A DNA stretch of 28,286 bases from an uncultured Pseudomonadales bacterium (GTDB taxonomy: Bacteria; Pseudomonadota; Gammaproteobacteria; Pseudomonadales; Pseudohongiellaceae). The stretch's first letter is position 1; each line of letters starts with the position of its first letter. Both the position numbers and the translations under genes were made by a program. This document shows, piece after piece, positions 9,797 to 14,909 of the stretch. The notes under the pieces were generated by a model. The model was not told the DNA's origin. It saw only the letters and a list, made by a program, of their open reading frames with translations, and searched no databases. The DNA is taken from assembly GCA_938082955.1 (NCBI GenBank), contig CALKDE010000267.1, positions 1-28,286 of the forward strand. The letters run 5' to 3'.

Positions 9797-9829
9797 CCGC
9801 ACCAACACAGACAACAAAGGGGAAGCAAG

Positions 9830-11041
9830 ATGCTGAAGGTTCTTGATCTTTTTAGCGGAATAGGAGGATTTTCACTAGGACTAGAGCGTACTGGAGGCTT
9901 TGAGACAGTAGCCTTTTGCGAGATAGAGAAGTATCCGCAGCAGGTATTAGCAAAACACTGGCCTGGAGTACCAATTTACAATGACGTTATGGAGCTAACG
10001 AATGAGCGACTCAAAGCAGATGGGATTTTTCCCAATGTCATCACCGGAGGATTCCCATGTCAGGATATCTCCGTTGCAGGCAAACAAAAGGGCATTGGTG
10101 AAGGCACAAGGTCGGGCCTCTGGTCGGAGTGCGCCCGTCTTGTTGGGGAGATTCGACCCAGATACGCAATCTTTGAAAACGTCACAGCACTCCTTTCTGG
10201 AGCAGACGGGAAATGGTTTGAGCGAGTTCTCTGGGACATATCCCAGATCGGGGGCTATGTCGTTGAATGGCACTGTATACCAGCTTCCCAACTTGGCGCT
10301 CACCACCACAGAGATAGGGTCTGGATCATATTACGCAACACCGACAGTGAACGACTCAAAGAATTCAACCTTACCTCCATCTCAAGGAAAGAGAAGCAGC
10401 CTAGTGGGGGATATGATAAGAGAAAGGGAAATGCTCCCGACACCAACGACAAGCGATCAGTACAGCGCCTCATCACCGGAGTATCTGGAGAAAAAGGGTC
10501 GCAACCCAATGACCAACCAATTGAGGGACGCGGTGAGATATGTAGAGGAAAGGAAGCCAATAGAATACTGGCCAACACCGACAGCGGCAGAAGCGAACAA
10601 GATTCTAGCTTGTGCAAACTACGGCCAAGTGGGACTAAACAACAATCCAAGAATCCGGGGTCTACCGACCAGACCGAAAAAGGAAAAGAGCGGGAAGAAA
10701 CTATTTCCAACTCCAACGGCGCGGGACTGGAAAGGCGGTTACAACACGAAATCTCTTACCAGGAAGGATGGGAAATCCAGAGCAATGGACGCATTGCCGA
10801 ATGCGATACTGGAAGGGAAAGGCACAGAGACGGTATCTGGGCAATTGAACCCTCAATTTGTGGAATGGCTGATGGGCTATCCGATGGAGTATACGAAGGT
10901 CGAGTGACAACCGGCGTGAAAGATCGCGCAAAGCGTCTTAAAACACTAGGCAACTCAGTAGTTCCTCAGATTCCAGAGCTAATAGGCAGGGCCATACTAG
11001 AGGCAGAAAATTGCACCAAATGCGAGGGAGGAAACCCATGA
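9830..11041 (+). CDS. DNA cytosine-C5 methyltransferase, alpha polypeptide (motifs I-VIII and X, no motif IX)
   Basis: LDLFSGIGG (I), GGFPCQDIS (IV), IFENV (VI), HHRDRVWII (VIII), RLKTLGNSVVPQ (X). Confidence 0.92.
   Translation: MLKVLDLFSGIGGFSLGLERTGGFETVAFCEIEKYPQQVLAKHWPGVPIYNDVMELTNERLKADGIFPNVITGGFPCQDISVAGKQKGIGEGTRSGLWSECARLVGEIRPRYAIFENVTALLSGADGKWFERVLWDISQIGGYVVEWHCIPASQLGAHHHRDRVWIILRNTDSERLKEFNLTSISRKEKQPSGGYDKRKGNAPDTNDKRSVQRLITGVSGEKGSQPNDQPIEGRGEICRGKEANRILANTDSGRSEQDSSLCKLRPSGTKQQSKNPGSTDQTEKGKEREETISNSNGAGLERRLQHEISYQEGWEIQSNGRIAECDTGRERHRDGIWAIEPSICGMADGLSDGVYEGRVTTGVKDRAKRLKTLGNSVVPQIPELIGRAILEAENCTKCEGGNP
10002..10907 (+). CDS. Nested beta polypeptide of the C5 methyltransferase (TRD-like repeats plus motif IX) in the +1 frame
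   Basis: 301 codons open inside the alpha gene; own GGAG SD (9991-9994); four (A/P)TPT repeats; C-terminal LNPQFVEWLMGYP; same layout as M.EcoHK31I alpha/beta. Confidence 0.85.
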   Translation: MSDSKQMGFFPMSSPEDSHVRISPLQANKRALVKAQGRASGRSAPVLLGRFDPDTQSLKTSQHSFLEQTGNGLSEFSGTYPRSGAMSLNGTVYQLPNLALTTTEIGSGSYYATPTVNDSKNSTLPPSQGKRSSLVGDMIREREMLPTPTTSDQYSASSPEYLEKKGRNPMTNQLRDAVRYVEERKPIEYWPTPTAAEANKILACANYGQVGLNNNPRIRGLPTRPKKEKSGKKLFPTPTARDWKGGYNTKSLTRKDGKSRAMDALPNAILEGKGTETVSGQLNPQFVEWLMGYPMEYTKVE

Positions 11042-11133
11042 AAATAATTAAACTAATAGCAATCGAGATAGCCTATGCCTCCGTGATAGCGCTTTTATTT
11101 GGTTTTGTTTTTTTGTCATTCTTCACATCATGA
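11038..11133 (+). CDS. 31-aa hydrophobic membrane peptide
   Basis: Read manually: MKIIKLIAIEIAYASVIALLFGFVFLSFFTS; GGAGG SD; ATGA overlap with the MTase stop and with the next ORF. Confidence 0.6.
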   Translation: MKIIKLIAIEIAYASVIALLFGFVFLSFFTS

Positions 11134-13762: not shown

Positions 13763-14172
13763 GAAGCCTCTCTGTACTGCTCATAAGCCTTCAGGGACGG
13801 CTCGCTCCAAGGTACGCCCTCATCGGACCCATAGGCGTACATCTGCTCGATCAACTCTGAAAACTCCTTTTTGTTCATCTTGCTTGTGCTTGTTGGGATA
13901 ACTACCAGGGATCCCGCTATCCCGTGAACAAATATTTGCGATTTCCATGCTGCAGTGATGATGTGCTTCCAGATTTCGGGCTTGTGCTTTAACCCCATCA
14001 GGACCACATGAGTGGAGAGATCAGTCAGCATGGGCCACATTTTCTTATTCTGCGCCAAAGTTCTAAGGCCATCGGTAGAAAATAGCTCCACCTCATCCAG
14101 GCACACCGCCAAGAATTGTGCAGACTGTTCGCACCCGGCGATGAGAGTTCCCTGAATGTTTTTGAATTTCAT
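13759..14172 (-). CDS. ninB: NinB/Orf recombination mediator
   Basis: RTLAQNKKMW.ML.DLS, WK.I.TA, TSKMNKKEFSELIE..YAYG...GV.WS; ATG 14172 overlaps the upstream TGA. Confidence 0.9.
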   Translation of the reverse strand: MKFKNIQGTLIAGCEQSAQFLAVCLDEVELFSTDGLRTLAQNKKMWPMLTDLSTHVVLMGLKHKPEIWKHIITAAWKSQIFVHGIAGSLVVIPTSTSKMNKKEFSELIEQMYAYGSDEGVPWSEPSLKAYEQYREAS

Positions 14173-14909
14173 TTCCCTGCCTCGATGTCCTGCTCTGCCA
14201 ATTCGCAAAATATCCCGCACTCAACGGCCATTTCAGAGGGATAATGTCCAGCTTTTGGATCAAGATCATGTAGATATAATGGCGAAGAATCAGCATTTTT
14301 CAATACCGTATACCCTTTTTCCTTTTCAAAGTCTGCCATCCTCTTGAATACCTCTGGATGAACTTCGCGGGTCTTGTTCCAATATCCCTGACCGCCTTTC
14401 ACACAACCCAAACAATTATTATTCCTAAAACCCAACTTATATTGCATTGGCAAATCAATCCCCGCATTAGCAAGTATTCCAAGACAATCTTCTTTTGTTA
14501 ATCCCCTCTCTATCAGGATGGGCCAAACATCTACCTGTGCATTAGCATCAATAAATCTATCAACCCTGTGCAGTTCCTCTACGGTATAGCCGAATACCTG
14601 CCTATCTGTAGGCAGCTCAAACTTTTCCCTTACTTGCTTTTTAAGCGACCGGGTGCAGGGAGAACCGCTTGGTGTCCTCATGTAGTTCTTATCAAAGACA
14701 TTGTAAATAGAGCCTTTGTAGAAATCGTTTTGAAGAATAACAATCTCCTGCCCAAACCATTTCTCACAGTCCTTTAGAAATCGCGCATTGTCTGAATGCT
14801 CTTCTTCGATATGGCAGTAAGCAATAGTAATTGGCTCACCCTCTGATAATGCTAACTTGGTAGCTACAGCAGATGCCGCTCCACACGAAAACCAACTCAC
14901 TGTTCTCAT
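14169..14909 (-). CDS. PAPS-reductase-like PP-loop protein
   Basis: N-terminal VSWFSCGAASA, PCTRSLKK, GYTVEE..R, NNNCLGCVKGG, CGIFC. Confidence 0.75.
   Translation of the reverse strand: MRTVSWFSCGAASAVATKLALSEGEPITIAYCHIEEEHSDNARFLKDCEKWFGQEIVILQNDFYKGSIYNVFDKNYMRTPSGSPCTRSLKKQVREKFELPTDRQVFGYTVEELHRVDRFIDANAQVDVWPILIERGLTKEDCLGILANAGIDLPMQYKLGFRNNNCLGCVKGGQGYWNKTREVHPEVFKRMADFEKEKGYTVLKNADSSPLYLHDLDPKAGHYPSEMAVECGIFCELAEQDIEAGK

Follow-up and report, generated by a model that had tools for sequence, protein, structure and literature searches.

In M.EcoHK31I, a C5-cytosine DNA methyltransferase of Escherichia coli HK31 that recognizes YGGCCR (Lee, Kam and Shaw 1995), the gene for the beta polypeptide lies wholly inside the alpha gene in another reading frame, and both polypeptides are needed for activity; it is the only characterized enzyme in which beta is nested in alpha (PMC2836561, PMC3404938). 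Truncation of its beta polypeptide at the N terminus weakens the association of the subunits (PMC2836561), and the assignment of its target recognition domain (TRD) to alpha is a prediction only (PMC3404938). M.AquI of Agmenellum quadruplicatum, which recognizes CYCGRG, is described as a two-polypeptide C5 methyltransferase that is split in the variable region and whose beta polypeptide carries motifs IX and X (PMC3404938). Here we describe a pair of nested genes, called alpha and beta below, that probably encode a phage enzyme of the two-polypeptide kind. They lie at positions 9830 to 11041 of contig CALKDE010000267.1 (GenBank assembly GCA_938082955.1) from an uncultured Pseudomonadales bacterium. 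The window, by which we mean the whole stretch of DNA that was analyzed (28,286 nucleotides [nt]), is the whole 28-kb contig of a 2.3-Mb metagenome-assembled genome (MAG).

Bacillus phages carry multispecific C5 methyltransferases whose tandem units are experimentally proven TRDs; those of phages SPR and phi3T were studied by the Trautner laboratory. M.SPBetaI (L189:1462-2820), a known multispecific phage methyltransferase, has two TL-type units, SPTLTT and AFTVNT, placed 47 amino acids (aa) apart and followed by motif IX. Prokaryotes and their viruses rarely have same-strand overlaps of about 900 nt that encode two functional products.

We put the probability that the locus encodes a two-polypeptide phage C5-cytosine methyltransferase made from nested genes at roughly 0.85 (Table 1). 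An earlier note on this DNA had described two nested plus-strand frames open over about 900 bp, an outer protein without motif IX and with a low-complexity middle, and an inner protein with its own Shine-Dalgarno sequence (SD), motif IX, and four (A/P)TPT units; all of these features were recovered here, the units at just the positions that the note had given. The overlap of alpha and beta measures 906 nt, both plus-strand frames being open. Alpha contains the motif strings FSGIGG, GFPCQDIS, ENV, HHRDRVW, and LGNSVVP. PF00145 C5 methyltransferases are marked by FxGxG in motif I, PCQ with the catalytic Cys in motif IV, ENV in motif VI, and RxR in motif VIII, all in a single large domain, and alpha conforms to this. 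Among 66 alpha sequences, residues G74, P76, C77, E116, N117, V118, R161, and R163 are invariant, as are G374 and N375 of motif X (GNxV). The alpha profile matched residues 12 to 175 of M.HhaI (motifs I to VIII) with an expectation value (E) of 1e-40, and a search of the PDB with the C-terminal half of alpha alone gave no match. About 190 residues of low complexity separate motifs VIII and X of alpha. PF00145 calls for motif IX and the target-recognizing region in one polypeptide, and at this locus motif IX and the PTPT units sit in the +1 frame.

The units of the inner protein start at beta residues 112, 146, 191, and 236, at spacings of 34, 45, and 45 aa, and its C-terminal segment, LNPQFVEWLMGYP, fits the motif IX pattern; the L.P.E..R..G.P segment of M.SPBetaI has the same pattern as beta residues 282 to 301. 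The repeats RNTDS, PDTND, ANTDS, and SNSNG, which the earlier note had called shadow repeats of the outer frame, were all found in the alpha translation and are the DNA of the PTPT units read one base earlier. The beta ATG is the second codon past a beta-frame stop (TAA, 9996-9998). In all 48 related non-identical loci in which beta aligned from residue 1, the beta start is likewise ATG, and a core SD 4-mer was present 4 to 16 nt upstream of it in 60% of these loci versus 13% of control positions in the same genes.

Selection keeps both frames open, and purifying selection acts on each of them where it bears motifs. The odds of chance openness were assessed by synonymous codon shuffles with one of the two proteins held fixed (20,000 each way): with beta fixed, the alpha frame acquired a mean of 10.5 stops, and with alpha fixed, the beta frame acquired a mean of 7.1 stops, and in neither direction was any of the 20,000 shuffles open. 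The third plus frame contains 19 stops, in line with expectation. Across alpha residues 171 to 360, the alpha frame is stop-free versus 5.9 stops expected from shuffles (P 0.0002). For positions 10002-10330, the opening 330 nt of the overlap, 16% of shuffles of the window by itself were open, and the significance of the openness of this part therefore comes from the survey of related loci described below. Over the last 330 nt of the alpha N-terminal domain (N-domain) in those loci, the +1 frame had 66 stops versus 298 expected from synonymous shuffles and was stop-free in 117 loci versus 20.8 expected, whereas the +2 control frame had 728 stops versus 746 expected. This depletion of +1-frame stops over the catalytic core of alpha therefore shows that the overlapping part of beta is kept open by selection.

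The earlier note had proposed comparing the ratio of nonsynonymous to synonymous substitutions (dN/dS) in the two frames, and this comparison, run as a phase-specific substitution count, found alpha constrained at its ends and beta constrained in the middle. In the alpha-only segments, alpha third positions differ at 0.42 to 0.51, the classical pattern, and in the N-terminal overlap the divergence at alpha third positions, which are beta second positions, falls to 0.27. In the middle region, changes between the window and L185, one of its two closest relatives, fell at beta third, first, and second positions in the proportion 15/8/2, and those between the window and the other, L186 (91% DNA identity), in the proportion 14/7/1; in both comparisons alpha first positions change freely and alpha third positions (beta second positions) are nearly frozen. 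The amino acid sequence of alpha in the middle drifts freely and is constrained only against stops.

The nested layout is conserved across a very large family. A word-indexed search returned 594 beta homologs, and a beta profile matched 51,486 cluster representatives (50% identity) at an E of 0.001 or better and 12,073 at 1e-30. About 175 loci were fetched from viral contigs and one-per-species genomes, and the alpha N-domain, beta, and motif X were placed in their frames. Of 155 non-identical related loci, 154 have beta in the +1 frame relative to alpha, and in 139 the stop-to-stop alpha open reading frame (ORF) encloses beta. The loci were drawn from phage contigs as well as from the prophages of many bacterial, and some archaeal, genomes, their hosts including Solirubrobacterales, Deinococcus, Rubrobacter, Sphingobium, Bradyrhizobium, Paenibacillus, and some archaeal MAGs; a tblastn search of beta against plasmids gave three weak partial matches. 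An inverse form of nesting was seen at three loci (L005:2267-3629, L006:3001-4548, and L173), at which a short alpha of 199 to 219 aa with motifs I to VIII only lies wholly within a long beta of 430 to 525 aa that has an extra N-terminal region, PTP units, motif IX, and motif X. Because alpha in these relatives ends just past motif VIII, with motif X in the beta frame, the tether that follows motif VIII in the alpha of the window (Table 1) is dispensable.

A structural model of the complex supports binding of the two products and suggests how they may fit together. The alpha-beta model scored 0.85 versus 0.63 for the best control; solved complexes attained this mark in 58 of 80 cases and mismatched pairs in 2 of 110. 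Structures of C5 methyltransferases have been solved, so the pass may partly reflect likeness to them. Three runs shared at least 57% of contacts, with the predicted local distance difference test score (pLDDT) of the partner at 51 or more. In the model, beta residues 76 to 98 are paired with alpha residues 141 to 150 (the motif VII strand), and beta residues 232 to 243 (the core of the fourth PTPT unit) and 278 to 301 (motif IX) touch alpha residues 11 to 16, 35 to 43, 157 to 164, and 355 to 380. Motif IX of beta contacts alpha residues 355 to 380 and packs on motifs X and I of alpha. The fourth PTPT unit is the only one that the model places against alpha with confidence; units 1 to 3 are unplaced, which is evidence in neither direction and was not used in deciding between one and several specificities. 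The overlapped N-terminal part of beta is thus predicted by the model to dock on alpha, a role that agrees with the weaker association of N-truncated M.EcoHK31I beta (PMC2836561).

Under the mechanism that we propose, a phage-borne C5-cytosine DNA methyltransferase would be made as two polypeptides from nested genes. Alpha would provide the S-adenosylmethionine (AdoMet)-binding and catalytic large domain (motifs I to VIII), then about 190 disordered read-through residues, and then the motif X helix, and beta, translated from its own SD and ATG, would provide an N-terminal docking domain, the four PTPT (TL-type) units, and motif IX. The motif VII strand of alpha would be joined by a strand of the beta N-domain, while motifs I, VIII, and X of alpha would receive the motif IX helix and the last PTPT unit, and the two polypeptides together would rebuild the complete enzyme, with beta as its DNA-reading small domain.

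Table 1. Features of the nested methyltransferase locus, in window coordinates; alpha folds were predicted with AlphaFold2 (AF2) from an alignment of 66 sequences
Feature	Position	Strand	Remarks
alpha gene, putative catalytic subunit, motifs I-VIII and X	9830..11041	+	403 aa; PF00145 E 9e-47; phrog_363 E 6e-73
beta gene: predicted docking domain, four PTPT units, motif IX	10002..10907	+ (+1 frame), nested in alpha	301 aa; phrog_1008 ("DNA methyltransferase") E 2e-25
Shine-Dalgarno-like GGGGA	9819..9823	+	6 nt 5' of alpha ATG; read from sequence
Shine-Dalgarno GGAG	9991..9994	+	7 nt 5' of beta ATG; likewise
alpha residues 1-170, AdoMet-binding and catalytic large domain	9830..10339	+	AF2 pLDDT 87-98; substitutions fall mainly on third codon positions of alpha
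alpha residues 171-360, disordered tether, alpha-frame read-through of beta-coding DNA	10340..10909	+	pLDDT 32-64, almost no secondary structure
alpha residues 365-397, motif X (LGNSVVP) and C-terminal helix	10922..11020	+	pLDDT 78-97
beta residues 1-110, N-terminal docking domain (predicted), over alpha motifs IV-VIII	10002..10331	+	stop depletion, lowered alpha third-position divergence, complex model
PTPT unit 1 (ATPTVND...)	10335..10436	+	34 aa; module cluster 16, type terminal in 3 other proteins
PTPT unit 2 (PTPTTSD...)	10437..10571	+	45 aa; in terminal-type cluster 0 by single linkage
PTPT unit 3 (PTPTAAE...)	10572..10706	+	45 aa; module cluster 4, next to last 16/17, never last
PTPT unit 4 (PTPTARDWKGG...), terminal, adjoins motif IX	10707..10844	+	cluster 0, terminal in 66/72 occurrences
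motif IX (LNPQFVEWLMGYP...), beta residues 282-301, assigned by pattern	10845..10904	+	nearly invariant in beta alignments; motif IX pattern

The alpha motif IV codons for GGFPCQD(I/F)S, when read in the +1 frame, give (E/A)DSP(A/V)KTS, a conserved motif of the beta N-domain (window 10050-10080 and the family alignment of beta), and the conservation of the beta N-domain is therefore partly a shadow of alpha. The beta N-domain may have arisen by overprinting of the alpha catalytic core. At the other end of the locus, a 31-codon hydrophobic ORF at window positions 11038 to 11133 (MKIIKLIAIEIAY...) begins with an ATG that overlaps the stop codon of alpha (ATGA), an arrangement that suggests a small membrane protein translationally coupled to the methyltransferase gene.

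Several observations weigh against the reading of the locus as a nested two-polypeptide enzyme. The beta protein is a predicted product. A Pfam scan of beta returned nothing even at an E of 1, a comparison of the beta profile with PDB sequences gave chance matches only (designed repeat proteins, E of 0.15 and above), and beta modeled alone by AF2 folds poorly (mean pLDDT, 57.6), its best-predicted parts being the strands of the N-domain and the motif IX helix; for these reasons motif IX of beta is assigned only by its pattern and from the complex model. In the complex test an unrelated control protein reached 0.63, leaving a margin of only +0.22. The loci of the survey were gathered by beta-frame patterns, so that the presence of beta was selected for, whereas the relative frame, the openness of alpha, and the stop depletion were not, and the 3,289 pairs of the phase-specific divergence count are mutually non-independent. 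Finally, L186 (L186:145-1388) has a 1-nt deletion in a run of A near window position 10677 that breaks both frames. The gene caller output at L186 is an alpha-to-beta fusion protein, P0027. A more distant relative, L187 (L187:2835-3819), whose alpha N-domain is 82% identical, has indels near the start of the unit region that leave the locus in three pieces. One is alpha motifs I to VIII, another joins the beta N-domain to the tether and motif X of alpha, and the last, in the third frame, holds the PTP units and motif IX. This three-piece locus may be a real form or an assembly error.

Such frame-breaking indels in L186 and L187 are what would be seen if the inner frame were a chance shadow ORF or the product of an assembly error and alpha alone mattered. 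That account is nevertheless the least credible of those considered, given that no shuffle was open in either direction, that the layout is kept in 139 of 155 loci, and that the middle region carries a signature of selection in the beta frame. The gene for the SPbeta multispecific methyltransferase, moreover, has 41 and 63 stops in its alternative frames, and open alternative frames are therefore not general for genes of this type. Sequencing error as an explanation was ruled out by the shuffle tests together with the conservation. It could also be supposed that ribosomes shift +1 past motif VIII and -1 past motif IX to make one canonical chain, the open overlaps being incidental, and the order of the motifs across the frames (I to VIII, then TRD and IX, then X) is indeed that of a canonical single chain. 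Recoding of this kind would demand two opposite shifts in one gene, and it needs neither an alpha frame open for 190 codons nor a beta frame open for 110 codons upstream of the shift, yet selection keeps both; the ATG and SD of beta are also conserved, and the N-terminal part of beta shows constraint along with a predicted role in docking on alpha. We consider recoding very improbable. Production of the enzyme as two polypeptides from nested genes remains our preferred reading.

The PTPT units of beta form an array that varies greatly within the family. In a set of 253 beta proteins that have motif IX, each protein has from 0 to 6 PTP units, with a mode of 2 to 3 (the window has 4). The 684 unit bodies fell into 216 module clusters, and the proteins show 202 distinct architectures, that of the window being 16-0-4-0. 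Nearly all units share a framework of an aromatic or aliphatic residue, the PTP core, 20 to 30 variable residues, and a short L..AV helix. By position, 147 of the 216 module types were internal only, 53 were terminal only (next to motif IX), and 16 were both, and only 16% of internal units belong to types ever found in the terminal place. Three of the four units of the window are of types that adjoin motif IX in other proteins. L185, with 92.5 to 98% DNA identity over its two aligned stretches, equals the window plus exactly 120 nt, that is, one 40-codon unit that begins at one PTPT core and ends at the following one, and neither frame is broken by the insertion; the boundaries of this unit were taken from blastn offsets and translations, as a MAFFT alignment of the DNA placed the gap wrongly. 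The difference of one unit, core to core, indicates that the conserved core codons are where complete units enter or leave the array, and it supports the growth of the array under a dual-coding constraint that the earlier note had envisaged, in that the array does change size with both frames open.

What the units do is a separate matter. Each might be an autonomous target-recognizing domain, the enzyme then methylating up to four motifs and gaining a specificity with every unit added. The units are like the two TL-type units of M.SPBetaI in size and spacing (34 to 47 aa) and in their x-P-T-[PLV]-T core, and the variation in unit number and architecture, the extra unit of L185, and the terminal-type character of three units of the window would all be expected of such an enzyme. 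The specialization of module types for internal or terminal places argues otherwise, as it means that the units are not simply interchangeable, and the units of some relatives, at 11 to 21 aa (P0074), are too short for a whole recognition domain; we regard multispecificity as rather unlikely. In a composite arrangement, for which we would give slightly better than even odds, the terminal unit and motif IX would read a single target and the internal units would be accessory repeats, acting as DNA contacts or spacers, that tune affinity, footprint, or flanking preference. The position-specific module types point this way, and the common framework, in which a short L..AV helix comes after the PTP core, has the form expected of a repeat scaffold. 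Two features of the internal units count against the composite arrangement: purifying selection acts on them in the beta frame, and they are swapped as cassettes between lineages, which is more turnover than a passive spacer needs. A broader scheme, which we put forward only tentatively and think doubtful, is that of an exchangeable-cassette array in which recombination at core codons adds, removes, or swaps units, each altering or adding a methylation specificity under dual coding, so that a phage anti-restriction enzyme could diversify its targets, the docking domain of beta having arisen by overprinting of the alpha core.

The contig encodes a P22-like portal protein, terminase subunits, NinB, a primosomal protein, and a PAPS (3'-phosphoadenosine 5'-phosphosulfate)-reductase-like protein, and no nuclease gene next to the methyltransferase was recognizable among the genes of the window. 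The enzyme resembles an orphan phage methyltransferase, a kind usually taken to protect against host restriction. We infer that both products are made and bind each other and that the enzyme guards the phage genome against host restriction; for the anti-restriction role, the only basis is the phage context and the lack of a recognizable nuclease gene nearby. The PAPS-reductase-like protein (window 14169-14909, minus strand; phrog_424, E of 1e-43) is encoded in the phage early region a few kilobases from the methyltransferase; proteins of this type are sometimes linked to DNA modification pathways.

A nested overlap of about 900 nt is apparently the rule in a very large family of phage methyltransferases. 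Annotation usually records only one of the two genes, and because of this the putative DNA-reading half is missed or labeled hypothetical. No relevant work emerged when the literature was searched for phage cytosine methyltransferases with nested or alternative-frame coding. Should specificity be set by the PTPT units, the family would offer a natural and easily engineered system in which alpha is a fixed catalytic module and beta a swappable reader, as well as a way to study how phages track host restriction and how a protein diversifies beneath a second coding frame.

A counterpart in a cultured phage is the pair ORF29/ORF28 of Escherichia phage K1ind2 (GU196280; L182:1002-1931), whose depositors annotated both genes, the outer as a "putative C-specific methylase" and the one nested inside it as a "putative Mte8-like protein." The nested ORF matches beta residues 190 to 297 of the window at 32% identity, over about a third of the protein; the likeness is one of annotation only, the depositors having given the nested ORF no function. 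For the name "Mte8," a search of the literature yielded only one passing reference, in a phage genome paper. M.SPBetaI resembles the window enzyme in being phage borne and in the tandem TL-type units that lie, at a spacing of about 45 aa, between its motifs VIII and IX, a resemblance of pattern only, with no significant sequence similarity shown. It differs in being a single polypeptide in one frame, with its alternative frames closed by the stops counted above, whereas the window uses two frames; and whereas the units of the multispecific Bacillus phage enzymes are proven TRDs, those of the window are TRD-like.

Like M.AquI, the enzyme of the window would be a two-polypeptide C5 methyltransferase split within the variable region, but its motif X is in alpha rather than in beta. 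The M.AquI-like division of motifs does occur in the relatives L005, L006, and L173, but with a short alpha nested in a long beta. The likeness to M.EcoHK31I is greater: beta of the window lies inside alpha on the same strand and in another frame, alpha has motifs I to VIII and X and beta has motif IX (a comparison by description), and the importance of the N-terminal part of beta for association fits the predicted docking of beta residues 76 to 98. The nesting and the division of motifs agree with what PMC2836561 and PMC3404938 describe, and the earlier note was right to name M.EcoHK31I as a precedent. Its interpretation held for the nested-frame split of a C5 enzyme and for the placing of the repeat units and motif IX in the inner frame; the parallel fails for the TRD, which in M.EcoHK31I is assigned to alpha, whereas the alpha middle of the window is disordered and the TRD-like PTPT units are in beta. 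M.EcoHK31I also belongs to a restriction-modification system, whereas the gene described here is in a P22-like phage contig with no recognizable adjoining nuclease. The comparison suggests that M.EcoHK31I is worth reexamining, as its TRD was put in alpha by position alone. A nested beta was already known from M.EcoHK31I; the beta described here includes a PTP repeat array that gains or loses whole units without breaking either frame.

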